Counted from the stretch's first letter, positions 578 through 64,000 are shown. The stretch: DNA of 64,000 nt from an uncultured Planctomycetia bacterium (GCA_964460615.1 CAYWPX010000001.1:120073-184072); one strand, 5' to 3'. The notes: generated from the sequence alone by a model not told the origin. Program-made: numbers and translations.

Positions 578-1342
578 ATGGAAAAGATCTCATTAAGTGT
601 TGTAGTGCTTACCAGAAACGAGGAGGACAATATAGCAAGATGCCTCAAAAGCGCGTCTTTTGCCGATGAGGTGATAGTGGTGGATGACGGTAGCACAGAC
701 AAGACTATCGAAATTGCCTCCAAGCTTGCCACAAAAATAGTAGAGAGAAAAATGGATGTCGAAGGTACTCACAGAAATTATGCTTATTCATTAGCCAAGA
801 ATAAATGGGTGCTCAGCCTTGACGCTGATGAAGAGATCAGTGTTGATCTAAAAAATGAAATAATCGAGACTCTTTCCAAGGAAACACCGCATGTTGTTTT
901 TTCCATGCCTATTAAAACTTATATTGGAAAGAGATGGATACAGCATGGCGGGTGGTATCCGGCAGGCAAAGACAGGCTTTTTCTTAAGGGCGAATTTAAG
1001 TACGAAGATGTAGGAGTGCACCCAAGGCCGATTTATAAAGGTACCTGCGGGCATCTTACAAAAGATATAGTCCATTATTCTTACAATGATTTTCATGATT
1101 TTTTTGTAAGCCTTAATAATCAGACTACCCAGGAAGCAAAAAAATGGATCCAGGACAAGCGAAAGATCAACGGCCCTAAAATATTTTATAAAATGTTTGA
1201 AAGGTTTTTTAAGTCATTTTTTCTTAAGAAAGGCTACAAGGATGGGTTATTGGGATTTATGGTCTCGTATTCAGGCAGCCTTTATCAATTATATACCTAT
1301 GCAAAGTACTGGGAAATGAAGAGTAATATGGAGAACAAATAA
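578..1342 (+). CDS. glycosyltransferase family 2
   Basis: N-terminal LSVVVLTRNEEDNIARCL...VIVVDDGSTDKT is the classic GT2 signature; stop overlaps next start (TAATG). Confidence 0.85.
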   Translation: MEKISLSVVVLTRNEEDNIARCLKSASFADEVIVVDDGSTDKTIEIASKLATKIVERKMDVEGTHRNYAYSLAKNKWVLSLDADEEISVDLKNEIIETLSKETPHVVFSMPIKTYIGKRWIQHGGWYPAGKDRLFLKGEFKYEDVGVHPRPIYKGTCGHLTKDIVHYSYNDFHDFFVSLNNQTTQEAKKWIQDKRKINGPKIFYKMFERFFKSFFLKKGYKDGLLGFMVSYSGSLYQLYTYAKYWEMKSNMENK

Positions 1343-3051
1343 TGAAAATTCTCGGAATAGGCGCACCGTTCTTTTTGCATGATCCGGCAAGTGCCTTAAT
1401 AATAGATGGTGAGGTTGTTGCGGCTGTAGAAGAAGAGAGATTTAACCGCAAAAAACATGCTATTGGGTGTTTATCTGTTGAGTCAACCAAGTTTTGTCTG
1501 AAAAAAGCTGGTATTAAACCAAGTGATGTTGAAGTTGTTGCATTCCCTTGGTCAGCCAAAGCATACTTTATGGGGATGTGGCCGCACTTTTTTGACACAT
1601 TGAAAGATGAGCCGTCAAGAGCGTTTAAGGGAATAAAAAACTTTACTAAAAAGAAGAAGGAGATTTCAACAAAACTTAAAATGACCCTTAAGGGCGCCGG
1701 TATTGATCCTGATAAAGTTGAAATCAGGTATGTTGAACACCACTTGGCGCATGCTTCAAGCGCTTATCATCTTTCGGGATTCAAGGATTCGGCTATTATG
1801 ACCATGGATGGATCCGGTGAATTTGCTACGACTGTATTTTGGGAGGGAGTGAACGGAAAAATAAGAAAAATAAAAGAGTTCTATCTTCCCAATTCCTTGG
1901 GGAGGTTTTATTCGACAGTTACTGCATATCTGGGTTTTCAGGCAAATGACGGGGAATATAAGTTGATGGGCATGGCGCCGTACGGTGATCCATCAAAAGT
2001 AGATATATCCAAAGTTATTTCGTATGATAAGGCAGGCTACAAAACCAATCCTGATTATGTCTGGGTAACCAGATCCAGGAGATATGATGTAAATAATATT
2101 TTTTCCAAACACATGGTCAAGATGTGGGGCCCGCCAAGGACCGGTGATGGGCTTACGGAGCCGTATATCCATATTGCTGCAGCTACTCAGAAAACTCTTG
2201 AGGATGTAACACTAGGCCTTATTGATACATATCTTGGCGATATTCTTAAGAAGAATGGCGGGAATCTCTCTTTTGCAGGAGGTTGCGCTTTAAATGTAAG
2301 TCTGAACAGAAAACTCCTTGGCCATCCGCTTATAAAACATCTATACGTTCAGCCTGCTTCAAGCGATGCCGGCACTCCTCTAGGGGCGGCTACATATGTA
2401 GCAAGCGAACTCGGAGAAAAGCTTAAGCCAATGACTCATGTATACCTTGGCCCCAGCTACACAAATGATGAGATAAAAAAAGAGCTTGATAAGATAAAAG
2501 TAAAATATACCTATCACGAAGATATAGAAGAGGTAACCGCCCAGCTGCTTAGCCAGGGCCAGATAGTAGCATGGTTCCAGGGGGAGATGGAGTATGGCCC
2601 AAGAGCCCTTGGCAATCGTTCTATACTGGGGAATCCTACAACCAAAGGCGTAAGTGACAGGATCAATGAGATAATAAAGTTCCGTGAGAACTGGAGGCCT
2701 TTCTGTCCGTCAATGCTTCCTGAATACGCAAAAGAGATCCTTGATTCGGATCATCCGGCACTTCACATGACTTTAAGCTTTAAGATAAGCGATAAATGGA
2801 AATCAAAGATACCCGAAGCGGTGCATGTAGACGGCACAATAAGACCGCAGGTGGTAGACCCTAAAACAAATCCCAAATACTACAAGCTTTTAAGCATCTT
2901 CAATAAAAAAACAGGAATACCTGTATTAATAAATACATCTTTGAATAGACGCGGCGAGCCAATGGTATGCTCCCCCAAGGATGCGATCAATATGTTCTAT
3001 GGAAGCGGTTTAGAGAACCTGGTAATGGGTAATTATTTATTGAGGAAGTAG
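1342..3051 (+). CDS. carbamoyltransferase, NodU/CmcH family (paralog 1)
   Basis: 569 aa; MKILGIGAPFFLHDPASALIIDGEVVAAVEEERFNR N-terminus and HHLAHASSAYHLSGF motif typical of NodU/CmcH O-carbamoyltransferases; SD GGAGAA upstream. Confidence 0.85.
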   Translation: MKILGIGAPFFLHDPASALIIDGEVVAAVEEERFNRKKHAIGCLSVESTKFCLKKAGIKPSDVEVVAFPWSAKAYFMGMWPHFFDTLKDEPSRAFKGIKNFTKKKKEISTKLKMTLKGAGIDPDKVEIRYVEHHLAHASSAYHLSGFKDSAIMTMDGSGEFATTVFWEGVNGKIRKIKEFYLPNSLGRFYSTVTAYLGFQANDGEYKLMGMAPYGDPSKVDISKVISYDKAGYKTNPDYVWVTRSRRYDVNNIFSKHMVKMWGPPRTGDGLTEPYIHIAAATQKTLEDVTLGLIDTYLGDILKKNGGNLSFAGGCALNVSLNRKLLGHPLIKHLYVQPASSDAGTPLGAATYVASELGEKLKPMTHVYLGPSYTNDEIKKELDKIKVKYTYHEDIEEVTAQLLSQGQIVAWFQGEMEYGPRALGNRSILGNPTTKGVSDRINEIIKFRENWRPFCPSMLPEYAKEILDSDHPALHMTLSFKISDKWKSKIPEAVHVDGTIRPQVVDPKTNPKYYKLLSIFNKKTGIPVLINTSLNRRGEPMVCSPKDAINMFYGSGLENLVMGNYLLRK

Positions 3052-3094
3052 AATCTGTTAACGCGTCCCTCGTGTAAACGTTAAAAAATTCCTC

Positions 3095-3123
3095 GCCTGC
3101 CTATAGCAGGCAAGAAATTTTTA
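3095..3123 (+). terminator. possible intrinsic terminator between the carbamoyltransferase paralogs
   Basis: Hairpin GCCTGC-ctata-GCAGGC followed by aagaaattttt. Confidence 0.4.
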
Positions 3124-3202
3124 GCACACACTTCGGGATAATTCGCACCTATAACTTAGTTTCCCATCGGGTCACCTAAGTTATGTGCTCATTAAGGAAA
3201 TA

Positions 3203-4909
3203 ATGATTATATTAGGAGTTGGAACACCTTTTTCGCATGACCCAGGAGCAGCGCTTTTGATCGATGGTGAGTTGATAGCCGCGGCTGATGAAGAGCGTTT
3301 TTCCAGGAATAAACACGCCATAAACGAATTCCCTGTTAAATCCATAAAATTTTGTCTCGCCAAAGCCGGCATCAAAGCAAGCGATGTTGAGATAGTGGCA
3401 TATCCCTGGAGCTATGCTGCCTACGAAGGAAAGATGTGGGATTTTTTTAAAAGAACCTGGTTAAGCAGGCCGAGCGATGCTTTTAAGTCTATTATAAAGG
3501 CTAAATCAAGGCATAAAGATAAGATTAAAAGACTGAATAATATCCTTTCCAGTTCAGGTATAAATCCCGATAAAGTAAAAAAATATTTTGTAGAACACCA
3601 CTTGGCGCATGCTTCAAGCGCTTACCATCTTTCGGGATTCAAGGATTCGGCTATTATGACCATGGATGCTGCCGGCGAATTTACATCAACGATGTTTGCC
3701 GAGGGTAAAGAAGGAAAGATAGCTAAAATTAAAGAATTTATATATCCGGACTCATTGGGGATGTTTTATTCGGTAGTTACAGAATATCTCGGTTTTGAGA
3801 TCAATGACGGGGAATATAAAGTAATGGGTATGGCGCCTTACGGCAATCCTGAAAAAGTGGATTTCAGTGATGTTATTAAATTTGATAAATCTGCTTACCA
3901 TGTGAATGATTTATTCACCTATTCAAGAAAAAGACATCGATATGAATCCGGCAAAATGTTCTCCAAACACATGGTCAAGATGTGGGGCCCGCCAAGGACC
4001 GGTGATGGGCTTACGGAGCCGTATATCCATATTGCTGCAGCTACTCAGAAAACTCTTGAGGATGTAACACTAGGCCTTATTGATACATATCTTGGCGATA
4101 TTCTTAAGAAGAATGGCGGGAATCTCTCTTTTGCAGGAGGTTGCGCTTTAAATGTAAGTCTGAACAGAAAACTCCTTGGCCATCCGCTTATAAAACATCT
4201 ATACGTTCAGCCTGCTTCAAGCGATGCCGGCACTCCTCTAGGGGCGGCTACATATGTAGCAAGCGAACTCGGAGAAAAGCTTAAGCCAATGACTCATGTA
4301 TACCTTGGCCCCAGCTACACAAATGATGAGATAAAAAAAGAGCTTGATAAGATAAAAGTAAAATATACCTATCACGAAGATATAGAAGAGGTAACCGCCC
4401 AGCTGCTTAGCCAGGGCCAGATAGTAGCATGGTTCCAGGGGGAGATGGAGTATGGCCCAAGAGCCCTTGGCAATCGTTCTATACTGGGGAATCCTACAAC
4501 CAAAGGCGTAAGTGACAGGATCAATGAGATAATAAAGTTCCGTGAGAACTGGAGGCCTTTCTGTCCGTCAATGCTTCCTGAATACGCAAAAGAGATCCTT
4601 GATTCGGATCATCCGGCACTTCACATGACTTTAAGCTTTAAGATAAGCGATAAATGGAAATCAAAGATACCCGAAGCGGTGCATGTAGACGGCACAATAA
4701 GACCGCAGGTGGTAGACCCTAAAACAAATCCCAAATACTACAAGCTTTTAAGCATCTTCAATAAAAAAACAGGAATACCTGTATTAATAAATACATCTTT
4801 GAATAGACGCGGCGAGCCAATGGTATGCTCCCCCAAGGATGCGATCAATATGTTCTATGGAAGCGGTTTAGAGAACCTGGTAATGGGTAATTATTTATTG
4901 AGGAAATAG
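3203..4909 (+). CDS. carbamoyltransferase, NodU/CmcH family (paralog 2)
   Basis: N-terminus MIILGVGTPFSHDPGAALLIDGE aligns with paralog 1; last ~315 aa identical to paralog 1. ORF track starts at GTG 3185; ATG 3203 chosen by alignment with paralog 1. Confidence 0.85.
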   Translation: MIILGVGTPFSHDPGAALLIDGELIAAADEERFSRNKHAINEFPVKSIKFCLAKAGIKASDVEIVAYPWSYAAYEGKMWDFFKRTWLSRPSDAFKSIIKAKSRHKDKIKRLNNILSSSGINPDKVKKYFVEHHLAHASSAYHLSGFKDSAIMTMDAAGEFTSTMFAEGKEGKIAKIKEFIYPDSLGMFYSVVTEYLGFEINDGEYKVMGMAPYGNPEKVDFSDVIKFDKSAYHVNDLFTYSRKRHRYESGKMFSKHMVKMWGPPRTGDGLTEPYIHIAAATQKTLEDVTLGLIDTYLGDILKKNGGNLSFAGGCALNVSLNRKLLGHPLIKHLYVQPASSDAGTPLGAATYVASELGEKLKPMTHVYLGPSYTNDEIKKELDKIKVKYTYHEDIEEVTAQLLSQGQIVAWFQGEMEYGPRALGNRSILGNPTTKGVSDRINEIIKFRENWRPFCPSMLPEYAKEILDSDHPALHMTLSFKISDKWKSKIPEAVHVDGTIRPQVVDPKTNPKYYKLLSIFNKKTGIPVLINTSLNRRGEPMVCSPKDAINMFYGSGLENLVMGNYLLRK

Positions 4910-6884: not shown

Positions 6885-8267
6885 ATGGATAATTTATTTT
6901 CAATAATAAGATTGATCATAGGCCTAGGCCTGACAGTATTTATTGGTTACGTCTTATTAAGCGCGATCTTCAGGAAAAACCGTGAGGGCCTTAATTATTC
7001 GGAACGAATTTTTGTTTCATTCGGCCTTGGGATAATACTGCTTACTATGGAGCAGTTTTTTTATTCAATATTAAAGATCGAGTGGTCTATTTTTAACATT
7101 ATTGTTCCATGGGTAGCCTTATTTATTGCGAATTTATTTCTCACAAGAAATGAAGTTAAGGTTTTGAAAGCTGTTCCTAAGGAAAAAATAAGATTAAGCC
7201 TTTTAGAGAAGTTTTTGATATCCATTATTGTTATGGAGGTTATTTATGTGTTCTTCAAGGCATTCAGTTTCCCGCTCAGCGACTATGATGGATTGGCAAT
7301 ATACGGGATCAAAGCAAAATCTTTCTATTTAAATGGGACGGTTTTTACCGATATGTTCACCGAGAAGATTTTCATACCGGCCCATCCGGATTATCCTCTA
7401 CTTTTACCTTTAGCTGAAAGCTGGGTCTACATATTTCTCGGGAGTCTGAATGATTATCTGGTAAAGATATTGTTCCCGGTCTATTATGTAGGGCTTCTGG
7501 TCATATTTTTCAGTGTAATGTTAAATTTTTTCAAGAGGCGCGAGGCTATCCTTTTTACTTTTTTTGTTGCAACAGTTTCCCAGCTTAGGAATTTTGGTTA
7601 TTTCTGTTATGCGGAAATGCCTCTGATATTTTATTATACAGCCAGTTTTCTTTACCTATTCATGTGGATCAAGAAGGAAAAGTTATCTTTTCTTATACTC
7701 TCAGCCTTAATGGCATTTGGCGCTCTTTGGTCAAAGAACGAAGGAAGTTTGTTATTTCTGGTAAATCTGGCCGTTCTTTTGATAGCAATATTTGATAAAA
7801 AACTGAATTTAAAAAAAGCTTTGGTCTGTTTTTTCGCTTATTTAGTCACAGTAGTGGTACTATTTACGCCTTGGGTCATCGTAAAGACTTGTTTTAACCT
7901 CACTAATGATGTTATTAATAAAGATACCTTGAAAGTTTCTTTGATAGCCAGTAATCTTGATAGGATAGGGCCGATTTTGTATGAATACCAGAAACATATC
8001 TTCGGCCCGAAAAAATGGAATATTGTCTGGATACTGATTATCATGACATTTATACTTAAATTCAAAAATCTTCTTAAGCCGGATCAAAAATATTTTACGA
8101 TCGCACTTATTTTATGTTTTTTAGGTTATACAATGACCTATTTTATTACTCCGCAAAATCTGACATGGCATTTGTCAACCAGCGCCAGCAGGATCATCCT
8201 TCATTTTTTGCCGATAGGACTTTTCTGGGTAGCATTATGTACGAGAAAGGAATTAGATGATTTCTAG
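6885..8267 (+). CDS. polytopic membrane protein, possible GT-C-type glycosyltransferase
   Basis: 460 aa with about 10-12 hydrophobic segments; adjacent to a polyprenol-P sugar synthase as in ArnC/ArnT-like pairs. Family not confirmed. Confidence 0.55.
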   Translation: MDNLFSIIRLIIGLGLTVFIGYVLLSAIFRKNREGLNYSERIFVSFGLGIILLTMEQFFYSILKIEWSIFNIIVPWVALFIANLFLTRNEVKVLKAVPKEKIRLSLLEKFLISIIVMEVIYVFFKAFSFPLSDYDGLAIYGIKAKSFYLNGTVFTDMFTEKIFIPAHPDYPLLLPLAESWVYIFLGSLNDYLVKILFPVYYVGLLVIFFSVMLNFFKRREAILFTFFVATVSQLRNFGYFCYAEMPLIFYYTASFLYLFMWIKKEKLSFLILSALMAFGALWSKNEGSLLFLVNLAVLLIAIFDKKLNLKKALVCFFAYLVTVVVLFTPWVIVKTCFNLTNDVINKDTLKVSLIASNLDRIGPILYEYQKHIFGPKKWNIVWILIIMTFILKFKNLLKPDQKYFTIALILCFLGYTMTYFITPQNLTWHLSTSASRIILHFLPIGLFWVALCTRKELDDF

Positions 8268-8835
8268 AGATAAAGTCGTTTTTATAGACAGGGACGGTGT
8301 TATTAATAAAGATCCGGAGGGCTGGGCGAAGAACGGATACGTAACCAATCCCGGAGATTTTATTTTTTTACCTGATGTAATGGATTCTTTGAAAAAGCTG
8401 ACAGAGAATGGGTACAAGATAATATTTATTTCCAATCAGGCCGGCGTCGGTAAAGGTTTATTTACCGAAGAAGAGCTTGATAAGGTAAATGATTATATGC
8501 TTAAAGAGATAGAGATGAATGGCGGCAGGATCTTCGGGACTTTTTATTGTACGCACAAAAAAGAGGATAATTGCGAATGCAGAAAACCCAAATCCGGGCT
8601 TATCCGGATGGCCATGTCTAATATAAATACCGATATTGAGAAAACATATTTTATCGGTGATACCGAAAGGGATGTCGTAGCGGCTAAAAACTTCGGTTTA
8701 AGGGCGATCATAGTTTTGTCGGGAAAGACTAAAATCGATGATATTAAAGACTGGGCTAACAAGCCAGATGAGATCATGAAAGATCTGAAGGAAGCAGTTG
8801 ACTTTATTGTCCACAAAGGAGTTTCTAATGAATAA
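8257..8835 (+). CDS. gmhB: HAD-family phosphatase, GmhB-like (D,D-heptose 1,7-bisphosphate phosphatase / histidinol-phosphatase family)
   Basis: VVFIDRDGVIN motif I, CTHKKEDNCECRKPKSGL zinc-binding loop, FIGDTERD motif. Confidence 0.7.
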   Translation: MISRDKVVFIDRDGVINKDPEGWAKNGYVTNPGDFIFLPDVMDSLKKLTENGYKIIFISNQAGVGKGLFTEEELDKVNDYMLKEIEMNGGRIFGTFYCTHKKEDNCECRKPKSGLIRMAMSNINTDIEKTYFIGDTERDVVAAKNFGLRAIIVLSGKTKIDDIKDWANKPDEIMKDLKEAVDFIVHKGVSNE

Positions 8836-54496: not shown

Positions 54497-55648
54497 ATGG
54501 ATAAAGTTAGACTTATTGCTACATCGACATTCGGGCTGGAAGCTATGGTTAAGCGTGAGCTTAGCAATCTCGGCTTTTATGACACGACCGGTGCTGATGG
54601 AAGAGTGGAATTCGACGCTAACTTAGCTGATATCCCGCGTTTAAATATAAATCTAAGAACTGCCGATAGAGTACTCTTAAAAATAGGTGAATTTAAAGCA
54701 TTTGATTTCGGCGAGCTTTTTGACGGGACAAAGGTACTTCCCTGGGAAGATTGGATACCTAAGGACGGTAAGATAAATGTCAGCGGTAAATGTGTCAAAT
54801 CTACTCTAATGAGTGTGCGCAGCTGTCAGTCGATAGTCAAAAAAGCTATTGTCGATAGATTAAAAGATAAATTAAAGACTGATTTGCTTCCTGAGTCTGG
54901 CCTGGAGTTTGGTATTCAGGTAGCAATGCTGAAGGATGCGGCTTTACTTACGCTAGATACTTCCGGAGCAGGGTTACACAAACGCGGCTATCGAACAGAA
55001 TCCGGTGAAGTTCCTATGCGAGAAAATCTTGCAGCTGCACTTGTAATGCTAAGTTCCTGGAAAAAAGATAAATTGCTCATAGATCCTATGTGCGGCTCAG
55101 GGACCATCCTCATAGAAGCCGCTATGATAGCCCGGAATATTGCTCCCGGATTAAAGCGTAAATTTGCCTCCGAGGATTGGCCTAAGATTGAAAAAAAGTA
55201 TTGGGACGAGGCGCGTAAGGCCGCTCGAGAGGCCATTAAGACCGAGGGGGTTTTAAATATTCTAGGTTTCGATATAGATCCGGATAGGATAAGGGATTGT
55301 AAGATTAACGCCAAAAATGCCGGAGTAGATAAGGACATAGTTTTTGAGGAAAAAGATATCAGAGAACTAAGGATAGATAAGCCGTCCGGCTATATTATCT
55401 CCAATCCTCCGTATGGTGTTGAGATGGGGACATTAAAAGAGTTGACGCATTTATATATCCTGATCCACAATATGTTTCGAAAGAAACTCGGCTGGGCAGT
55501 TTATATAATAACCGCAGATAAAAGATTTCCGGATTTTTTTAAACGCGCTAAACCTGACAGGGTAAGGAAGCTATTTAACGGTGGCCTGGAGGTAAATTAT
55601 TATCAGTATTTTGCAAAAGAGATAGAAAAGAAGGCAACTAGCTCATAG
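54497..55648 (+). CDS. THUMP-domain class I SAM-dependent RNA methyltransferase (RlmL/COG0116-like)
   Basis: N-terminal THUMP-like region; methyltransferase motifs IDPMCGSGT and ISNPPYG. Confidence 0.8.
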   Translation: MDKVRLIATSTFGLEAMVKRELSNLGFYDTTGADGRVEFDANLADIPRLNINLRTADRVLLKIGEFKAFDFGELFDGTKVLPWEDWIPKDGKINVSGKCVKSTLMSVRSCQSIVKKAIVDRLKDKLKTDLLPESGLEFGIQVAMLKDAALLTLDTSGAGLHKRGYRTESGEVPMRENLAAALVMLSSWKKDKLLIDPMCGSGTILIEAAMIARNIAPGLKRKFASEDWPKIEKKYWDEARKAAREAIKTEGVLNILGFDIDPDRIRDCKINAKNAGVDKDIVFEEKDIRELRIDKPSGYIISNPPYGVEMGTLKELTHLYILIHNMFRKKLGWAVYIITADKRFPDFFKRAKPDRVRKLFNGGLEVNYYQYFAKEIEKKATSS

Positions 55649-55711
55649 CTCATTGCTCATAGTTCATAGTAAAAGCAATAACTGAAAGCTGATAGCTGAT
55701 AGCTGAAAGCT
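55640..55711 (+). repeat. heptad array pair: (AGCTCAT)x4 overlapping the stop codon, spacer, (GCTGAWA)x4
   Basis: AGCTCAT AGCTCAT TGCTCAT AGTTCAT ...17 nt... ACTGAAA GCTGATA GCTGATA GCTGAAA GCT. Confidence 0.75.
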
Positions 55712-55731
55712 AATTTGATAGGAAATAAAAA

Positions 55732-55986
55732 ATGTCAAAGATTAAACTGGATATGCATGATATATTTAATAAGTCCGAAGAGATTGAGTTGGAGCTTAAT
55801 AGGGTTATTGATGAAGCAATGCGAAAAAAGATCCAGCTTGTTGAGATAATCCCGGGTAAGGGGAGCGGCCAACTCAAAAAACATGTACTAAGATTTTTAC
55901 AAAATCCGGAAATCAAAAAACTATATCATCGCATAGAAAAAGACGATAAGAATTTTGGCAGGATCTTTGTGCATTTTAAGTTTTAA
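55732..55986 (+). CDS. Smr-domain protein
   Basis: 84 aa; LDMHD...IIPGKGSGQLKKHV matches the Smr LDLHG...HGKG pattern. Confidence 0.7.
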   Translation: MSKIKLDMHDIFNKSEEIELELNRVIDEAMRKKIQLVEIIPGKGSGQLKKHVLRFLQNPEIKKLYHRIEKDDKNFGRIFVHFKF

Positions 55987-55991
55987 GAGAA

Positions 55992-56064
55992 TGGCTCATG
56001 GTTCATAGCTCATTGCTCATAGTAAAAGCAAGAACTGAAGACTGTGAGCTGAAAGCTGAAAGCT
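55992..56064 (+). repeat. heptad array pair (GCTCAT-type then GCTGAA-type)
   Basis: GGCTCAT GGTTCAT AGCTCAT TGCTCAT ... GAGCTGAA AGCTGAA AGCT, ending 8 nt before ATG 56073. Confidence 0.75.
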
Positions 56065-56072
56065 AAAAAATA

Positions 56073-56765
56073 ATGACTAAAGAAATTCTATCCAAAGATA
56101 TACCAGCACCGAAGCTTATCAGATCCCGAAGGCGAAGCATCGCCTTGGAAGTCAGGCATGACGGCACCCTTGTAGTGAGGGCGCCGCATTTTCTTCCGGA
56201 TGCCCAAATACGAGAGTTTATTAGTAAGAGGCGCGCTTGGATAGATAATGTTTATAATCGTACACGTGAGAAGTTGCAATTATTTAAACCTAAGCAATTT
56301 GTTAATGGTGAGAAATTTCTTTATCTAGGCAATGAGTATACTCTGCATATAACCCAGGATATGGACGGTAAGTTTCTTTTTGAAAACCAATTTATACTTA
56401 ATGAACGGTATATAGCTAAAGCAAAAATACTCTTTGAGCGTTGGTATAGACAAGAGGCATTTATGCTTTTTACCAAAAGATGCAAATGCTATGCTCAATA
56501 TATGAGTGTAAGCTATAAAAGTATCAGTCTATCAAATGCCAAACACCGCTGGGGTTCATGCTATCCGAATGGAGGGCTTGGATTTAATTGGCGTTTAGTG
56601 ATGGCGCCGGAATGCATTATTGATTATGTAGTTGTGCATGAATTGGCGCATCTGGTTGAGGCCAATCACTCTAAACGGTTTTGGGCGCTAGTAGAAAAAA
56701 CGTTTCCAAATTATAAAGAAGCAAAGTTATGGCTAAGGGATAATCAACATAGGCTTAAGATATAA
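56073..56765 (+). CDS. YgjP-like M48-family metallopeptidase (DUF45/SprT-like, HExxH)
   Basis: HELAHLVEANHSKRFWALVE zinc motif; 230 aa. Confidence 0.8.
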   Translation: MTKEILSKDIPAPKLIRSRRRSIALEVRHDGTLVVRAPHFLPDAQIREFISKRRAWIDNVYNRTREKLQLFKPKQFVNGEKFLYLGNEYTLHITQDMDGKFLFENQFILNERYIAKAKILFERWYRQEAFMLFTKRCKCYAQYMSVSYKSISLSNAKHRWGSCYPNGGLGFNWRLVMAPECIIDYVVVHELAHLVEANHSKRFWALVEKTFPNYKEAKLWLRDNQHRLKI

Positions 56766-56880
56766 GCTCATAGCTCATGGTTCATAGCTCATACTAGAAA
56801 TAGTACGCAGTACACTGTACAAAGTACACAGTAAAAACATTACTTGTGTTCTGGTGACTGATAGCTGAAAGCTGACGACT
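56766..56880 (+). repeat. heptad arrays: (GCTCATA)x4, (AGTACAC)x5, GCTGA-type units
   Basis: GCTCATA GCTCATG GTTCATA GCTCATA; AGTACGC AGTACAC TGTACAA AGTACAC AGTAAAA; GATAGCT GAAAGCT GACGACT. Confidence 0.75.
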
Positions 56881-56912
56881 TCCGCCACAAAGCGTTGGCG
56901 GACAAGGATAGC
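56879..56912 (+). repeat. hairpin repeat element CTTCCGCCA-N8-TGGCGGACARG, copy 1
   Basis: Same ~35-nt element recurs at 59805-59839; rearranged variant at 59144-59191. Confidence 0.7.
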
Positions 56913-57105
56913 CAATATATTTATCCTTCACAATAATCCAATCAACAAATCTCCGATTTAATTTCAAATGTAGAAAATAATCAGAAAAAAGTAGACTGAA
57001 ACTATGTCCTTCCAAAACACTCCGTTATATAATTAAATATATTGAAAAAAGGAACGATCAGAAAATTGTCTGCCGTAAGACAGTCTTAAATCGAAAGGAG
57101 ATTGT

Positions 57106-57753
57106 ATGTTCACGCATCATGGGAAAACAATGATCGACCCGAAAGATTCTGTGCTTTTACTAATTGACCATCAAAGCGGTTTATTTAATCTTGTTAAAGA
57201 TATGGAAGTTGTTGATCTGCGCAATCATGTCATAGCTCTTGCCAAGGTGGCAACTAAGCTAAATATCCCTGTTATCACTACTGCCTCAGTGCCGGAAGGG
57301 GCAAATGGGCCGGTTATTCCGGAGATTAAGGTATTTGCTCCAAACGTTAAGTACATTCCGAGGCAAGGCCAGATAAATGCGTGGGATGTGCCTCTCTTTG
57401 TAAGTGCGGTTGAAGAGACAAAGCGTAAAACCCTTATTATGACCGGCACGCTCACAAGCGTATGCCTGGCATTCCCGGCCTTATCGGCAGCGTCAGCCGG
57501 ATACAAGGTATATGCAGTTGTGGATGCATCGGGGAACTGGAGCAAGATGGCGACGGATCTCACGATAGCGCGTCTCGCTCAGGCAGGAGTTATACCTATA
57601 GATACGTTCGCTGTCATAGGCGAGCTGCAGCAGACCTGGAACCGGCCTGATGCATTGGATTATGCCGAGATATTCGGTGAAAATATAATACCAAATTACC
57701 GTTTGCTTATGGAAAGCAAAAGCAATATTCAGGAGCCTGTTTACCAAAAATAG
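57106..57753 (+). CDS. isochorismatase-family hydrolase
   Basis: LLLIDHQ motif and catalytic Cys in TGTLTSVCL; 215 aa. Confidence 0.8.
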
Positions 57754-57792
57754 TTGCGTAATTAGAAGAAATTTATTTATTAAATCATAAAA

Positions 57793-57821
57793 AGGAGCTC
57801 ATTTTTGGGCTCCTTTTTTTG
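57793..57821 (+). terminator. intrinsic terminator after the isochorismatase gene
   Basis: AGGAGC-loop-GCTCCT followed by TTTTTTT. Confidence 0.6.
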
Positions 57822-57932
57822 TTCAAATTCAGGTATTTTGCCTTGTATAGGAAATCACTAAGTGCTATAATTAATCATTATAAAAGGAAACAAGCGTGAG
57901 CGAACGTAACTATAATTAGTGTTACTAGATAA

Positions 57933-57962
57933 GCAATCCCTATGGAGGGGGTTGCTTTTTTT
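57933..57962 (+). terminator. intrinsic terminator
   Basis: GCAATCCC-tatggag-GGGGTTGC followed by TTTTTTT. Confidence 0.65.
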
Positions 57963-58042
57963 GTTGGAAGGGTGATGGGGGTAGGCTTCAGGTCGCAGGT
58001 CGCCCCTCGTTTTACCCGGGGTTTACTGTGGTTGCAAGTGAA

Positions 58043-58115
58043 GATTTAAAACCTGAGACTTGCTACCGCAATCTGCGTGTGTTTCGAGCGAAGCAGAGGG
58101 ATAACCTGTGACATG
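58043..58115 (+). repeat. ~70-nt direct repeat, copy A (upstream of the DUF1559 gene)
   Basis: TTTAAA..AGACTTGCTA.C...AATC.GCG.GTGT..CGAGCGAAGCAGAGGGAT shared with 58906-58978. Confidence 0.7.
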
Positions 58116-58179
58116 TAACATAATAACTGATGGCTAATGACTGATAGGAAAATTATCAGAGTAAATTTAAAAGAATATT

Positions 58180-58878
58180 ATGAATAAAAACAATTCTTTA
58201 AAAGGATTTACTTTATTAGAACTTTTGGTTGTTATTGTTGTTATTGGTGTCTTGGCAGGGCTTCTTCTCCCCGTTATGAGCGGAGTCAGGGAGCAGGGTA
58301 GGCGTATTACTTGTCTCAACAATCTTCGCCAGCAAGGTATTGCATGGTATATGTATCTTGATGAGCATAATGATTGTTTTCCTGCATATAGTGATCCTCC
58401 AAATGATACGCAATGTATGGAAACCACTTTTGGGGGCAAAGCCGGTGATAGTGGGTTCGCAGCTACGTCGAGACCTCTTAATCGATATCTCGGGATAAAC
58501 AATACAACTCCTGCGGACGTTTTTCATTGTCCCGACGATATAAAAGCAGCTCAAGGCCAGAGCAGAACAGTCTTCGATGTTTTTGGGAACTCATATTATA
58601 TTAACCCATGCATTTTACTTTATGGGGTGACGGATAGAAGGCCCTTGGCTTCAATCACCAATCCACGTAATAAGGTGTGGTTTGAGATGTGTTCTTTGGA
58701 TATGGTCCCGGGACATAGTGGAAAAGGATTTCAAGGTAATTTCACGCCAGTAATGGTGCTTTTTGTAGATGGGCATGTAAAGGGGCCGTATCTTTCTGAC
58801 AGTGAATTTGACTGGTTTGATAATCCATCAAAATCCGTATGCTGGTATCCTAATGCTACAGAGGATCCTCTTGATTAG
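58180..58878 (+). CDS. prepilin-type N-terminal cleavage/methylation domain protein, DUF1559 (H-X9-DG) family
   Basis: KGFTLLELLVVIVVIG prepilin leader, conserved CxNNLRQ region, C-terminal LFVDGHV. Confidence 0.85.
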   Translation: MNKNNSLKGFTLLELLVVIVVIGVLAGLLLPVMSGVREQGRRITCLNNLRQQGIAWYMYLDEHNDCFPAYSDPPNDTQCMETTFGGKAGDSGFAATSRPLNRYLGINNTTPADVFHCPDDIKAAQGQSRTVFDVFGNSYYINPCILLYGVTDRRPLASITNPRNKVWFEMCSLDMVPGHSGKGFQGNFTPVMVLFVDGHVKGPYLSDSEFDWFDNPSKSVCWYPNATEDPLD

Positions 58879-58905
58879 GAGAGTAGGGTTTTATATTGCT
58901 AGTAA

Positions 58906-58978
58906 AATTTAAACTTAAGACTTGCTATCTGTAATCAGCGGGTGTCCCGAGCGAAGCAGAGGGATGGCATGGAACAGG
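58906..58978 (+). repeat. ~70-nt direct repeat, copy B (downstream of the DUF1559 gene)
   Basis: About 80% identical to 58043-58115 in the same orientation. Confidence 0.7.
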
Positions 58979-59034
58979 AGTTTTGAAAGCTGATTTTAAA
59001 AATAGTTATCTATCCTGTCAAATTCGTAAAATTT

Positions 59035-59082
59035 AGATATAACTTATTTTAAATCAAATATTATACAGTGGTGCCAGGCACC
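59035..59082 (+). repeat. conserved upstream element ending in palindrome GGTGCC-A-GGCACC, copy 1
   Basis: AGATATAACTTATTTTAAATCAAATA..TTATA..GTGGTGCCAGGCACC; near-identical at 61088-61136, partial at 63202-63239. Confidence 0.75.
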
Positions 59083-59143
59083 AGAAAAAGTACTGGAGCT
59101 CGTGATCGTACTGATAACTCCAGCTACAAAGCTTCGACATAAA

Positions 59144-59191
59144 CCATTGGCGGATAAAGTTGGCGGGCAAGGATAGCTGATCGCTGATAGG
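59144..59191 (+). repeat. variant of the CCGCCA/TGGCGG element fused to GCTGATA heptads, ending at the SD
   Basis: ACCATTGGCGGATAAAGTTGGCGGGCAAGGATAGCTGATCGCTGATAGG; left arm inverted relative to the copies at 56879 and 59805. Confidence 0.6.
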
Positions 59192-59200
59192 AGGAAAACC

Positions 59201-59788
59201 ATGAAAGTAATAGCATTTAACGGCAGCTCGCGAAAAGAAGGTAATACTGCAATTCTAATTAAGCTTGTGCTTAAGGAATTAGAGAAAGATGGTATCAAGA
59301 CTGAACTAGTGGAATTGGCCGGTGAAAAAATTCAAGGTTGCATTGCCTGTTACAAATGTGTTGCCAACAAAGATAAAAAATGCGCCATAAATGACGACAT
59401 AGTTAACGAGTGTATAGATAAAATGGATAAGGCGGATGGTATTATCATAGGTTCCCCTACATATTTTGCTGATTGCACTTCACAGACAAAGGCGCTTATT
59501 GAACGGGCTGGGTTTGTATCGAGAGCAAATGGAGGTATGTTTAAGCGTAAAATAGGTGCCGCAGTTGTATCTGTGAGGCGAGCTGGGGCGATACATGCTT
59601 TTAATAGTATAAATCACTTTTTTACAATAGGTGAGATGATAATAGTCGGGTCTAGCTACTGGAATATAGGTATAGGTAGAGAAATCGGCGATGTGGAAAA
59701 AGACGAAGAAGGTTTAAAGGTAATGAGTACACTTGGGAAGAATATGGCGTGGTTACTTAAGAAGATAGCTCCAGGCTCTGGGCTCTAG
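59201..59788 (+). CDS. flavodoxin-like NADPH-dependent FMN reductase / iron-sulfur flavoprotein family
   Basis: MKVIAFNGSSRKEGNT, GSPTYF flavin-binding motifs; Cys cluster CIACYKC...C; GGAGGA SD. Confidence 0.8.
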   Translation: MKVIAFNGSSRKEGNTAILIKLVLKELEKDGIKTELVELAGEKIQGCIACYKCVANKDKKCAINDDIVNECIDKMDKADGIIIGSPTYFADCTSQTKALIERAGFVSRANGGMFKRKIGAAVVSVRRAGAIHAFNSINHFFTIGEMIIVGSSYWNIGIGREIGDVEKDEEGLKVMSTLGKNMAWLLKKIAPGSGL

Positions 59789-59804
59789 GGAAAAAGCTCA
59801 TGGC

Positions 59805-59839
59805 TTCCGCCACAAAGCGTTGGCGGACAGGCATGGCGC
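59805..59839 (+). repeat. hairpin repeat element CTTCCGCCA-N8-TGGCGGACAGG, copy 2
   Basis: Same element as 56879-56912. Confidence 0.7.
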
Positions 59840-59978
59840 ATAGTAAAAATGAAGGACGATAGGCGAGGGATGAGAGGATAGTTTGGAGTTGGGAGCGAAA
59901 TCTATCTAAAGATAGATTTCAGGAGTTGGGAGTAAAAAAGTAAAAGAAAAAATGGGCGCCGTCCATATATATATCTAA

Positions 59979-60518
59979 ATGAAAAACTTCATAAATTTTA
60001 TCGTAAAGTACCTAGTATTTGTTTTTTTAGTTGTATTTACATTTATATCTAGCAGTTGTTGTGAGTTTGCTACTTCTGTTGCCCTAACGCACAAAATATC
60101 AAGTATTAGAGTTATTTCCGAAATTGATACAGGAGAAGCAGGAATTATTCAGATAAACGAAATTGATATTACTAAAGTTGCCGAGGATGTTTTTTTAAAG
60201 GGTGGGATAAGGGTGCTAAACAATAAAACATATGAAACGGAAAAATATCCCGGCACATTAAAAGTAATTATTAAATGGATTAAAATTAATGAGGAAAAAC
60301 ACTGCTGTAATTATACAATAAATTATGAATTATCGCAGTTCGATTCTATTGTGCAAGAAAATAACCCATATATTATTTATTCATCAGTTAGTGGGTCGGC
60401 TGGGCTAAAGGATATTAAAGAGAATATTTTAGGTTCTATAAGAAATTGGGTAAAAGATAGTATTAAAAAATCCCAAATATTTATTAAATATGAAAAAAAA
60501 GTCGATGCTTCTATTTAA
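59979..60518 (+). CDS. hypothetical exported or lipid-anchored protein
   Basis: 179 aa; N-terminal hydrophobic segment then Cys (FISSSCC); AT-rich coding region. Confidence 0.5.
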   Translation: MKNFINFIVKYLVFVFLVVFTFISSSCCEFATSVALTHKISSIRVISEIDTGEAGIIQINEIDITKVAEDVFLKGGIRVLNNKTYETEKYPGTLKVIIKWIKINEEKHCCNYTINYELSQFDSIVQENNPYIIYSSVSGSAGLKDIKENILGSIRNWVKDSIKKSQIFIKYEKKVDASI

Positions 60519-60560
60519 TAAAAAATAGGTGTGTCCCTATTTAAAATGGAAGATTAATAA

Positions 60561-61046
60561 ATGATTAAAATCAGATTTATTAATATATTTCTGACGCTAA
60601 TATTAGTAGTTTTAATGAAAACTTCCGGCATTTTTGCCGAAGGAATGCTTAATATCGAAGCAATTGATCTTCTTGATGAGTACAAAATAGTTTGTACCAA
60701 AACCGATCCTTCCTTTGAAGCTACCACTAGCGGTAAATTTATCTTTGATCCGGAAAAAAATAGCAATTACCCAATAGCATTTGTGGTTATGCTCACCCAG
60801 GATAGATCCGAAGGAGAGAATGAAGACGATCTCGATACAGTTATTAAGATGGTCATTTTAAAGGACCCTGTTTACAAAGACCTGATAAATAGCGAAAAAT
60901 CCGCAGACTCCGCCATTATACACATACCCAAGGCGAATGTCAGAAAGTCAGAAACCGAAAAGCATAATCTATCGATCAGTAAATATGAGGATGAACTAAA
61001 AAATTCAGGTGAATATAAAAATATAATATTTCCAGATAAGAAATAG
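60561..61046 (+). CDS. hypothetical secreted protein
   Basis: 161 aa; signal peptide ending SGIFA-EG; AT-rich. Confidence 0.5.
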   Translation: MIKIRFINIFLTLILVVLMKTSGIFAEGMLNIEAIDLLDEYKIVCTKTDPSFEATTSGKFIFDPEKNSNYPIAFVVMLTQDRSEGENEDDLDTVIKMVILKDPVYKDLINSEKSADSAIIHIPKANVRKSETEKHNLSISKYEDELKNSGEYKNIIFPDKK

Positions 61047-61087
61047 CAGGAGAGAGAGTGTAGTTCCTATTAAATTCTTGAAAATTA

Positions 61088-61136
61088 AGATATAACTTAT
61101 TTTAAATCAAATAGTTATAACGTGGTGCCTGGCACC
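61088..61136 (+). repeat. conserved upstream element ending in palindrome GGTGCC-T-GGCACC, copy 2
   Basis: About 45/49 identical to 59035-59082; its 3' end runs into the LamG reading frame. Confidence 0.75.
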
Positions 61137-61639
61137 GTAAAGGCACAGGAGAGACGGTAGGAAGATTTTATACTAGCTCTGGAGTCTCGTTAGTTGAAGG
61201 AGAGTGGTATAATCTTGCTTTTACTAGAAATTACAATACTTCCTCTATCTTAATTGACGGGGTTTCACTGCCCACAATTCAGCCCATAGATTGGGCCAGT
61301 AATATGGAAATTCTAACATCGCCAGTTTATTTGGGCAGTGCCGCAACAGCACCAGGATATGGATTAAGAGGATACTTAGACAATTTACAGATTTGGAATT
61401 ATGCGCGAACTGAGCAGCAATTAAAGGATTCCATTACTAATTTACCGAATGGTAACGAGGAAGGCTTAATGGGGTATTGGAATTTTGATAATATTCAAAA
61501 TGGTGTTGTGCCTGACTTAACTGAATATGGTAATAATGGTTTTATTAATCCGCCTATTTCTACGCCAGAGCCTGTATCAATGCTTTTATTTGGTATCGGT
61601 GGATGGGTGTTGGCGCTATTAAGAAAAAAACGCTCATAA
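61121..61639 (+). pseudogene. LamG-like (concanavalin-type) PEP-CTERM protein, 5'-truncated fragment
   Basis: Frame open from 61121 encodes a LamG C-terminal half (EGEWYNLAFTRNYNTSSILIDGV, DNLQIWNYARTEQQL) and a PEP-CTERM tail (TPEPVSMLLFGIGGWVLALLRKKRS); no N-terminal half or signal peptide; first in-frame ATG at 61304. Confidence 0.6.
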
Positions 61640-61764
61640 TATTGGATTGACTAAATTCTACCTACGCAGTATTATTTAGGAGTAGGAGTAAGGAAAAGGG
61701 TTCCTTACTGAATAGGGATAAGGGTTAGAAAATAATTAGTAGCTGTCCCTAATTAACGTACCCT

Positions 61765-61974
61765 ATGCATTCTGCAATAGATTGGATTCCCATAGAAACT
61801 GTATCATTTAGTAGAATAAAAGAATTCATGACTAATGTAACGACTAAGCTTCAAAATATGCTGCTCGAAGATGTTCTTAAAAACGTTGAAATGGATAAAA
61901 AAGAACGTGAGCTGTTTAAAGCTTTGTATAAAAGTAATGAAGCAATTCTTTGTATTAAATGGCCGGTTTATTAA
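61765..61974 (+). CDS. hypothetical small protein
   Basis: 69-aa ORF; no recognisable motif or clear SD. Confidence 0.3.
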   Translation: MHSAIDWIPIETVSFSRIKEFMTNVTTKLQNMLLEDVLKNVEMDKKERELFKALYKSNEAILCIKWPVY

Positions 61975-62002
61975 AAACGTAAGTTAATTTGGAGGTGGTA
62001 AT

Positions 62003-62047
62003 ATGCAAAACCTCGCGTTAAAAGTAGCTGGATTTGTTTTTGGGTTA
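62003..62047 (+). pseudogene. truncated 5' copy of the small membrane-protein gene
   Basis: ATGCAAAACCTCGCGTTAAAAGTAGCTGGATTTGTTTTTGGGTTA with GGAGGTG SD matches the 5' end of 62111 and 63736; frame stops after 26 codons. Confidence 0.5.
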
Positions 62048-62110
62048 GAAGTAAAAAACGGGTCACACCTATTTATTTGAAATTACTATAGAAAACCGGG
62101 AGGTTCAACC

Positions 62111-62296
62111 ATGCAAGACATCGCGTTAAAAGTAGCTGGATTTGTTTTTGGGTTAGTGGCTATATTACATCTTTTGAGAGTGTTATTTAAAGTAAAGTTT
62201 ACGGCAAATAATATTGTAATTCCTCTATGGCTAAGTGTAGTTGCTTCGATAGTGGCGCTGTTGCTGGCGCTTTTTATGTTCGCGTGTTTGCAATAG
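62111..62296 (+). CDS. small membrane protein, two predicted TM helices (copy 1)
   Basis: 61 aa; paralog of 63736-63924; C-terminal 24 aa identical between copies. Confidence 0.5.
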   Translation: MQDIALKVAGFVFGLVAILHLLRVLFKVKFTANNIVIPLWLSVVASIVALLLALFMFACLQ

Positions 62297-62430
62297 GGGA
62301 AGTTTGGAGTTGGCCTAGATGCCTATACCACTCCTAGTCCTCGTGGTGCTTAACGGCATCGCGGCATGAAATCGCGCATCGCTTGATTTCAGGAGTATGC
62401 GGTAACAAGTCGCAGGCCTCAGATTACATG
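62297..62430 (+). repeat. conserved GC-richer non-coding element downstream of the small membrane-protein gene
   Basis: 62279-62370 appears identical to 63909-64000 where the window ends; contains a 16-codon hydrophobic mini-ORF (MPIPLLVLVVLNGIAA). Confidence 0.6.
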
Positions 62431-62474
62431 CTAAAAGAGAAGAAAATTTTAGTAAAAGTGAGAAAAACATTAAA

Positions 62475-62876
62475 ATGAAAAAGATAAATGTAATACTAGT
62501 AATATTATTAAGCATAAGTTGTATGGGATTTTCGTTTATGAAGAAAGAATTGTCAAAAGAAAAGATATTGGAAATCGCCATTAATAGGGCAAATGAACTT
62601 GGGTTTACTCTCAATCAGGTTACTCCTTACTTTGACGAGGGAAACAAAAGACTTAAAGAACACTCAAGAAATAGCGGCGTGTCCACCTATAACGAAAAGA
62701 AAGAAGAGTGGGTATATGACGCGCCATCTACCCCGACAAAAAAATATCCTGAATTAGAAGATCGAAATTATCAGGCGGTATATTTTGCCCCCAAAGAAAT
62801 GCAGCTTGGTGGCGATCTCTGGATCTTTATAGACAAGAACACCGGGGAAGTGATCTCGTATGTGTTTGGGAAATAA
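62475..62876 (+). CDS. hypothetical lipoprotein or secreted protein
   Basis: 133 aa; N-terminal signal-like segment with Cys (LLSISCMG). Confidence 0.5.
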   Translation: MKKINVILVILLSISCMGFSFMKKELSKEKILEIAINRANELGFTLNQVTPYFDEGNKRLKEHSRNSGVSTYNEKKEEWVYDAPSTPTKKYPELEDRNYQAVYFAPKEMQLGGDLWIFIDKNTGEVISYVFGK

Positions 62877-62880
62877 AGAT

Positions 62881-63010
62881 GCTCAAGGCTCCAGGCTCTA
62901 GGGAAAAACAAAATACCGCTCCAGGTTCGGGGGTGAGTCCCCTTCGGCGAGGCTATGCTTCGCTTTGCACGGGTGAGAGGAAAACCTAGAGCTCTGAGCC
63001 TAGAGCCAAG
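62881..63010 (+). repeat. GC-rich structured intergenic element with long-range inverted repeat
   Basis: GGCTCCAGGCTCTAGGG ...~80 nt... CCTAGAGCTCTGAGCCTAGAGCC; internal GGGG-tgagt-CCCC hairpin; related motifs at 59769-59795 and 30230-30256. Confidence 0.55.
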
Positions 63011-63201
63011 AGCGGGTTTTGTGCTATATTAAATTGATGGAACAACAAAACCCTTTGTGTTATAATAAATGGTAACAGATTCGAGTAACACGGAAAGGGA
63101 ACAAGAAGCAATGGGTCTTTTTGGTAGCAAACAAAATAAAAGTATAAAGGTGAATTAATTTAAGCCGGGGATAAAATTCTCGGTTTTTTTGTTCAAAACT
63201 C

Positions 63202-63239
63202 TTTTAAATTTAAGTATTTATAAAGCGGTGCCTGGCACC
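63202..63239 (+). repeat. partial copy 3 of the GGTGCC-T-GGCACC palindrome element
   Basis: TTTTAAAT...TATTTATAAAGCGGTGCCTGGCACC, 22 nt upstream of ATG 63262. Confidence 0.6.
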
Positions 63240-63261
63240 GAAAAATTAAAAAGGAGAAAAA

Positions 63262-63651
63262 ATGGGAAAAGCTGGAAAGCTATTGATGGTTTGTATTGTT
63301 TTGGTTTTATCTTTATCTTTAGTTGGTTGTGCAACACTTTTTAAACAGAAGTCAAGAACTGTTGGTTTTGATTCTGACCCACAAGGGGCCGATATTTATA
63401 TTAATGGAAATCGAATGGGCAAAACTCCTATGCCTATGAATTTATCTAATTTAAAAGCCGTTACAGTTACCTTTAAAAAAGATGGCTATGAAGATAAGAC
63501 ATACATTATTAATACTAAAGTTGGCGGAGGTTGGGTTGTTTTAGATTGTTTGGGAGGTTTTATACCGGTTATAATAGATGCAGTTACAGAAAATTGGTAT
63601 AACCTTGATACTGACGAAGTAAAAGTTATACTTGATGTTCAAAAGAAATAA
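63262..63651 (+). CDS. hypothetical lipoprotein
   Basis: Signal peptide with lipobox LSLVGC; AGGAGA SD. Confidence 0.55.
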   Translation: MGKAGKLLMVCIVLVLSLSLVGCATLFKQKSRTVGFDSDPQGADIYINGNRMGKTPMPMNLSNLKAVTVTFKKDGYEDKTYIINTKVGGGWVVLDCLGGFIPVIIDAVTENWYNLDTDEVKVILDVQKK

Positions 63652-63735
63652 ATTCTAAAAATTAATTAAGCAATAAAAGTGGTGAGTAATAATAAGGGAA
63701 AAGGGGACGCTTCTATTTAAGTTGAAGGCACAACC

Positions 63736-63924
63736 ATGCAAAACCTCGCACTAAAAGTAGCTGGATGTATATTTGTTATAGTGGCTATTATGCAGCTTTT
63801 GAGAGTGCTATTTAAGGTAAAGATTGTGGTTAATGATAATATTATTGTTCCTATATGGCTTAGCGTGGTGGCTTCGATAGTGGCGTTGTTACTTGCGCTT
63901 TTTATGTTCGCGTGTTTGCAATAG
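63736..63924 (+). CDS. small membrane protein, two predicted TM helices (copy 2)
   Basis: 62 aa; paralog of 62111-62296. Confidence 0.5.
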   Translation: MQNLALKVAGCIFVIVAIMQLLRVLFKVKIVVNDNIIVPIWLSVVASIVALLLALFMFACLQ

Positions 63925-64000
63925 GGGAAGTTTGGAGTTGGCCTAGATGCCTATACCACTCCTAGTCCTCGTGGTGCTTAACGGCATCGCGGCATGAAAT

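Follow-up and report, generated by a model that had tools for sequence, protein, structure and literature searches.

The 64,000-nucleotide stretch analysed here (the window; GCA_964460615.1 CAYWPX010000001.1:120073-184072, from an uncultured Planctomycetia bacterium) carries two carbamoyltransferase genes, an upstream gene a and a downstream gene b, which lie head to tail on the + strand of one contig. Their 3' parts are identical and their 5' parts are strongly diverged. Our results make it very probable that this mosaic was produced by recurrent interlocus gene conversion between the tandem paralogs, limited to roughly the 3' 55% of each gene. Recent gene conversion between the two genes had already been proposed in an initial annotation of the window. 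The proposal is now supported by a synonymous divergence (dS) of 0 in one part of the genes against ~1.3 in the other, by five further tandem pairs, and by discordant trees of the two gene parts.

Identity and divergence of the two genes

The two genes were compared base by base at an offset of 1858. This comparison showed a single unbroken exact run of 944 nucleotides (nt), in which 2104-3047 of gene a equals 3962-4905 of gene b; the initial annotation had reported the same segments at the same offset, and the exact comparison agrees with it at every base. A mismatch at 2103 bounds the run on its 5' side, where it starts at codon F254/S255 (FSKHMVKMW...), and a mismatch at 3048, the third base of the last lysine codon (AAG versus AAA), bounds it on the 3' side. 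The TAG stop codons of the two genes are the same, and from 3052 on the identity is at background (17-40%). Given a background identity of 63%, the probability of an exact run of this length is ~1e-189. No third copy of the 944-nt segment was found in the 64-kb window. For gene b we used the ATG at 3203 as start; the mechanical open reading frame (ORF) opens earlier, at GTG 3185, and AAGGAAATA lies 5' of the ATG.

Outside this run the picture is very different. The 5' parts of genes a and b share 58.7% amino acid (aa) identity over residues 1-253 and 63% nt identity, so the divergence of the N-terminal ~250 residues had been recognised correctly in the initial annotation, while its figure of about 55% was slightly low. 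Over codons 1-200 the dS was 1.34 and the nonsynonymous divergence (dN) 0.36 (dN/dS ~0.26), whereas both dN and dS were 0 over codons 260-545. Codons 226-254, just before the exact run, are 45-49% identical and contain an indel. Within the diverged part, a short patch (1735-1810 versus 3593-3668, 76 nt), which encodes EHHLAHASSAYHLSGFKDSAIMTMD with the metal-ligand motif, is nearly identical between the genes. Its only mismatch is the synonymous TAT/TAC difference at 1767, in agreement with the single differing base noticed before.

The relationship of each part to genes from other genomes was also compared. The N-terminal part (N-part) of gene b is closest to N-parts of other genomes (P0065, P0077 and P0031, ~65%), versus 58.7% to the N-part of gene a, and the N-parts of a and b are no closer to each other than either is to homologues from other genomes. 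For the C-terminal part (C-part) shared by a and b, the best outside protein is only ~70% identical. Because dS is 1.34 in one part and 0 in the other, and because the N-part of b is nearer to other genomes than to a, the two parts of this gene pair have very different coalescence times: the 5' parts are old tandem paralogs and the 3' parts young.

Other tandem pairs and competing explanations

Five further tandem pairs from independent assemblies were found at the same syntenic position as the window pair, namely L001/L002 (two JGI samples), L003 and L085 (two ENA assemblies), L084 (found again as L171, JGI) and L096 (JGI). Comparison with related loci had been suggested in the initial annotation as a check, and all five pairs carry the mosaic, with differing tract ends (Table 1). 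The 5' ends of the tracts lie at codons 255, 252, 246, 203 and 201, and the 3' ends at codons 569, 565, 547 and 557. This variation of the end points among pairs indicates that the tracts arose in separate events. A dS of 0 within the tract next to a saturated flank was also observed in L003, L084 and L085. The contig break in L096 is the effect that such a repeat is expected to have on an assembler.

The N- and C-parts of the pairs were then compared by neighbor-joining trees and identity matrices. The N-parts group by copy (L003a-L085a 63%, L003b-L085b 64%, L001a-L096a 74%, L001b-L096b 82%), and the a-b identity of the N-parts inside one genome is 49-63%. In contrast, the C-parts group by genome, being 100% identical within a genome and 66-86% identical between genomes. 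This discordance between the trees is the textbook mark of concerted evolution through gene conversion that is limited to part of a gene. Within the L003 lineage, a protein-level comparison of two strains (P0018/P0047 versus P0123/P0124) showed only one C-part amino acid difference, at column 559, and it is alike in both copies.

A scan of GTDB genomes with the family alignment returned matches that were mostly from distant phyla; among the matches listed, close Omnitrophota loci (identity of 56% or more) numbered at least 5, and none of the matches listed added a tandem pair. A metagenome scan with a custom DNA pattern for INTS[LF]NRRGEP gave 120 loci, which included one new pair (L096, incomplete) and L084 again, as L171. 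Exact-sequence look-ups with both window proteins returned no second assembly of the window locus. A single carbamoyltransferase was found in most Omnitrophota relatives (L208, L209, L211, L086/L087, L004-L006, L013 and L027), frequently at the syntenic glycan locus. The tandem pair is a minority state, with either several origins or frequent loss behind it.

One assembly (ENA ERZ24794676) holds both the L003 tandem pair and, on another contig, the single gene L209. The N-part of this single gene is b-like (65% to window b) and its context is unrelated, with a sigma-factor gene and a 1042-aa protein without a Pfam match on record as neighbours.

Identical 3' parts could also be the untouched remainder of a young tandem duplication of the whole gene, if the 5' ~760 nt of one copy were later replaced by a foreign allele through horizontal gene transfer and homologous recombination; no conversion of the 3' part would then be involved. 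Two observations fit such a history, since the nearest relatives of the window genes carry one copy at the same locus and the N-part of b is nearer to N-parts of other genomes than to that of a. However, L003 and L085, like L001 and L096, share both N-types across genomes whose C-parts differ by 14-28% in amino acids, and the C-parts in these pairs are identical or mosaic within each genome, which requires conversion after the genomes split. The 76-nt near-identical patch would also lie within the supposedly foreign part, and at least four independent origins with the same polarity would be needed. We therefore consider a young duplication very unlikely, although it keeps some probability for the window lineage taken alone.

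An artefact of assembly, raised as an alternative in the initial annotation, has an even lower probability in our judgement. According to this explanation the repeat was duplicated or collapsed, and the true genome carries one gene or clearly different 3' halves. The pairs with very long exact runs are indeed all on short-read-style metagenome contigs (NODE_ or JGI names), exact repeats of ~0.9 kb are hard to resolve, bubble popping can delete isolated single-nucleotide polymorphisms (SNPs), and contigs break inside the carbamoyltransferase gene in many metagenomes. Nevertheless, the contig can exist only if the repeat is joined, on each side, to sequences that are themselves unique, namely the spacer (3052-3202) and the two 5' parts. 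In L001/L002 a tandem of non-identical copies was assembled, alike in two samples, and six assemblies agree on the arrangement while their tract end points differ. Single mismatches between copies survive in L001 and in the window patch. Moreover, a k-mer assembler cannot merge copies that are less than ~98% identical, so the near-identity would be real regardless. For the tandem arrangement and the near-identity, the unique flanks and the non-identical pairs elsewhere thus leave the artefact unsupported. The exact 100% could be ~99% if SNP bubbles were popped, which would leave the interpretation unchanged.

Table 1. Features of the two carbamoyltransferase genes in the window, and longest exact runs between the two copies in the tandem pairs
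Feature	Position	Strand	Remarks
Carbamoyltransferase gene a (upstream copy)	1342..3051	+	ORF, 569 aa; P0001
Carbamoyltransferase gene b (downstream copy)	3203..4909	+	ORF, 568 aa from ATG 3203; P0002
5' part of gene a, apparently unconverted	1342..2103	+	residues 1-254; acceptor-binding elements by analogy with GdmN
5' part of gene b, apparently unconverted	3203..3961	+	nearest N-parts are in other genomes
Putative converted tract, copy in gene a	2104..3047	+	codons 255-569; 944-nt exact identity with 3962-4905
Putative converted tract, copy in gene b	3962..4905	+	exact match of 2104-3047
Putative short conversion patch, gene a	1735..1810	+	metal-ligand motif
Putative short conversion patch, gene b	3593..3668	+	counterpart of 1735-1810
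Island divergent in all pairs	1567..1701	+	residues 76-120 of gene a; gene b counterpart about 3425-3559
Intergenic spacer	3052..3202	+	151 nt, unique; without other copy in the window
Longest exact run, window pair	codons 255-569		944 nt
Longest exact run, L003	codons 252-565		941 nt
Longest exact run, L084	codons 246-547		905 nt
Longest exact run, L085	codons 203-557		1064 nt
Exact runs, L001			mosaic, runs of 35-86 nt at several positions; C-part dS 0.71
Exact run, L096	from codon 201		76-nt run; contig end at codon 246 inside identical run

Among the metagenome loci, many contigs end inside the carbamoyltransferase gene (L093-L205, for example L096, L111, L143, L174, L177, L178, L187 and L204). 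The break points cluster at residues ~160-264, where the identical tracts begin. The 3' position of the search motif biases this sample, which was not counted as evidence. Hidden tandem pairs may be breaking the assemblies at these points.

The enzymes and the segments that stay different

Both proteins match Carbam_trans_N (PF02543, E 1e-50 to 1e-53) and Carbam_trans_C (PF16861, E 3.5e-67), far over the cut-offs. In gene a the two domains span residues 2-350 and 400-569, and gene b has the same two. The closest solved relatives are TobZ (E=1e-94), NovN, the carbamoyltransferase 7XB6 and GdmN (E range 1e-94 to 1e-78). From these matches, the two intact genes a and b are assigned to the class III (TobZ/NodU-type) O-carbamoyltransferases. 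In this class a YrdC-like domain forms carbamoyl-AMP, and a Kae1-like domain moves the carbamoyl group to an acceptor hydroxyl (PMC9633730). NodU proper was rejected as an assignment: against the equivalog model NCBIfam NF041651 the proteins scored 157 and 150 bits versus a cut-off of 1000, so they are relatives within the family and not NodU.

Residues H13, D14, H133, H137, D156 and D342 are invariant across a 20-sequence alignment and are kept in both a and b; the metal ligands of GdmN are H133, H137, D156 and D333 (PMC9633730). Since the catalytic and metal-binding residues (His-Asp, HxxxH, Asp) are kept and the dN/dS of the 5' part is ~0.26, both copies look functional.

To locate the segments that escape conversion, we compared a with b along the gene in the six tandem pairs. 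Residues 76-120 showed 29-67% nt identity, the lowest of any segment, and the a-b similarity was also low at residues 166-195. In L084 most of the 5' part is homogenised, yet both of these segments are divergent. Residues 136-165, between them, showed 93-100% nt identity in four pairs (window, L001, L084 and L096) and 64-82% in L003 and L085. This result suggested that the 76-nt patch in the window is a conversion tract, because amino acid conservation is insufficient to explain it. Codon bias or purifying selection as the cause of the patch was rejected on the same ground, the motif region being only 64-82% identical in L003 and L085.

The structure of GdmN offers a guide to what these segments do. 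Its Kae1-like domain covers residues 1-351 and its YrdC-like domain residues 368-571, and the elements of the acceptor pocket all lie between residues 8 and 246: loop 1 (8-30), helix 1 (85-98), loop 2 (156-162), helix 2 (186-196), loop 3 (197-203) and loop 4' (238-246) (PMC9633730). The numbering of GdmN equals that of the window proteins from ~128 to 204. In an alignment with NovN, helix 1 falls at about residues 73-86 of the window proteins and overlaps the island at residues 76-120. By analogy, the acceptor-side elements would all be in the unconverted part, and the converted part would be the nucleotide and carbamoyl-AMP side.

The identical tract spans the last third of the Kae1-like domain (the nucleotide-binding subdomain), the linker and the whole YrdC-like domain. 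Its boundary does not coincide with the Pfam N/C border, a possibility that we rejected: the boundary is at residue 254, inside the Kae1-like domain, and the border is at ~350-400. The idea in the initial annotation that a C-terminal domain is shared while the N-terminal domains diverge is therefore to be refined as to the position of the boundary. By the same analogy, we infer that a and b use the same donor chemistry and are specific for different acceptors or positions.

How could such a mosaic arise? Gene conversion would most probably proceed by homologous recombination of the two direct repeats, which are spaced by 1.86 kb, without reciprocity and with one copy overwriting the other; the recombination enzymology would be of the RecA type. 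Conversion would be seeded within high-identity stretches and would end at the stop codon, because the homology ends there. A second, short tract would cover the metal-ligand motif. If conversion in the ~0.9 kb is far more frequent than point mutation, most pairs would be caught with zero differences. Two options may account for the sparing of the 5' ~250 codons. Selection may remove converted variants, if the enzymes need different acceptors, or heterology, the indel included, may form a barrier that recombination cannot cross. The same repeats should also permit deletion of the spacer together with the head of b. Single-copy genomes exist at the same locus, and they are equally explained by a duplication that was never acquired.

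The least probable of the alternatives holds that selection itself keeps the 3' module homogeneous (in a heteromer or by one shared docking partner), or that the ~0.9-kb repeat is a deletion/amplification switch for gene b that varies surface carbamoylation: the pattern does last across lineages diverged to ~70% aa identity, long-lasting prokaryotic concerted evolution is concentrated in complex subunits (Wang and Chen 2018, PMC6053082), and single-copy genomes at the same locus could be deletion products, but TobZ is a monomer and GdmN dimerises via an extra C-terminal domain without counterpart in the 569-aa window proteins (PMC9633730), conversion that is more frequent than mutation accounts for the identity with no need of selection, and single-copy loci are equally expected with a derived duplication. 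A bolder form of these ideas is that Omnitrophota keep one carbamoyl-AMP "engine" on two acceptor-specific "heads" by selected, long-lasting concerted evolution limited to a domain, for instance if both enzymes have to fit a single partner, or use the repeat as a switch of envelope carbamoylation within populations; we regard it as improbable.

Several points weigh against recurrent conversion confined to the 3' part. The nearest homologues of the window genes, L208, L209 and L211, are single-copy, and for the window lineage recurrence is argued by analogy with other Omnitrophota lineages. Assemblers may collapse isolated differences between near-identical repeats, and the exact identity is that of the assembly. 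The mapping of the acceptor pocket is taken from GdmN and NovN, natural-product enzymes of 30-40% identity, and is approximate for residues 1-130 and beyond 220. Finally, the escape of the 5' part fits selection and plain sequence divergence alike.

The glycan locus and comparison with known systems

All near relatives (identity up to 65%) with a source name in the homologue search came from Omnitrophota metagenome-assembled genomes (MAGs), and the window locus is assigned to an Omnitrophota MAG as well. The two window genes themselves were recovered as P0001 and P0002, together on an NCBI contig of 331,600 bp. The gene order of the conserved locus is GT9, carbamoyltransferase, carbamoyltransferase, GT2, GT2, small membrane protein, PMT_2-like, GmhB-like HAD and MGDG_synth. 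In the window, the neighbours of the pair include GT2 glycosyltransferases, a methyltransferase, an MGDG-synthase-like gene and a 460-aa multi-pass membrane protein whose orthologues match PMT_2. A GmhB-like heptose-bisphosphate phosphatase lies at 8257-8835 (167 bits versus a cut-off of 178). In the orthologous Omnitrophota loci, genes of the GT9 heptosyltransferase family and the Wzy_C ligase family are also present upstream. The carbamoyltransferase pair is thus set among genes of the heptose/lipopolysaccharide (LPS)-core type, which is the gene context of a WapO-like enzyme. Judging by gene content, the locus is an envelope-glycan locus, probably for the LPS core, and the role of the pair would be carbamoylation of the LPS core or another envelope glycan.

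The spacer between the genes is 151 nt in the window versus -4 to 33 nt in the other tandem pairs. It contains a terminator-like hairpin (3098-3112) and a palindromic element (3152-3185, TAACTTA-N18-TAAGTTATG) directly 5' of the ribosome-binding site of gene b. Another Omnitrophota genome (L006, 6499-6561) has a 63-nt look-alike of this element, 79% identical, 5' of an epimerase gene; the outer arms are the same, and the G+C inner stem differs (CCC/GGG versus GCGC/GCGC). The palindromic element could be a conserved leader or operator hairpin. An Rfam search of the window gave no RNA feature.

Repeats were also observed elsewhere in the window. Several short intergenic repeat families lie in 55641-63244. 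One consists of GCTCATAGCTCATTGCTCATAG... units (55641, 55994 and 56803) and another of hairpin units with GGTGCCTGGCACC (59040, 61094 and 63197), and there are two further pairs of 44-50 nt. In 61991-64000 a small-ORF module (ribosome-binding site and ATG, MQNLALKVAGF...) is repeated at 61991, 62099 and 63724. The segments 62208-62372 and 63836-64000 are 93% identical, and this repeat continues past the window end. The module looks like another tandem paralog array.

As a natural case of partial concerted evolution in bacteria, the carbamoyltransferase pair is unusually clean, and it will be no surprise to specialists in bacterial genome evolution. The 3' part appears to have been homogenised repeatedly, while the 5' part kept two identities until the orthologues were ~63-82% identical in amino acids. 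The boundary would part acceptor recognition from donor chemistry in a two-step enzyme, and from its position we predict that a and b carbamoylate different acceptors with the same carbamoyl-AMP module. Residues 76-120 and 166-195 are candidate specificity determinants for the engineering of this enzyme class. In practice, exact ~1-kb repeats at the locus will break or distort short-read MAG assemblies, and phylogenies built from whole genes, as well as orthology assignments of these carbamoyltransferases, will be misled by them.

Among characterised enzymes, TobZ, GdmN, NovN and NodU resemble a and b in the two-domain build (Kae1-like and YrdC-like), the metal ligands and the catalytic histidine. 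These are natural-product enzymes of ~35-40% identity, whereas the window genes sit in an envelope-glycan locus. The pair also resembles WapO/PA5005 of the Pseudomonas core cluster, a putative LPS-core heptose 7-O-carbamoyltransferase (PMC8005017). The likeness is one of gene context, a carbamoyltransferase gene among LPS-core genes, and WapO is present in one copy in Pseudomonas versus the tandem pair here.

For concerted evolution in prokaryotes, 26 long-lasting cases have been catalogued (Wang and Chen 2018, PMC6053082), and the text of that study contains no occurrence of "carbamoyl". A preprint on Omnitrophota genomes mentions ornithine carbamoyltransferase only, and gene conversion never. 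In the catalogued cases, as in tufA/tufB, rRNA operons and mycobacterial PE_PGRS pairs, two paralogs of one genome resemble each other more than orthologues from different genomes do, synonymous sites included. Like the pair described here, these bacterial cases recur in many lineages with variable tract ends. Unlike them, only the 3' ~55% of the carbamoyltransferase genes is homogenised, the 5' part retains a trans-specific paralog identity, and the genes belong to uncultured Omnitrophota.

Mosaic paralogs in which selection limits conversion are treated by Teshima-Innan-type models and are familiar from animal opsin and RH gene pairs. In those eukaryotic mosaics, too, the region under divergent selection stays different and the linked rest is homogenised; for the carbamoyltransferases, selection on the 5' part may play this role. 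In conclusion, the process itself is known; the new, well-resolved case adds to it that, in several lineages, conversion is restricted to a single functional half of the gene.

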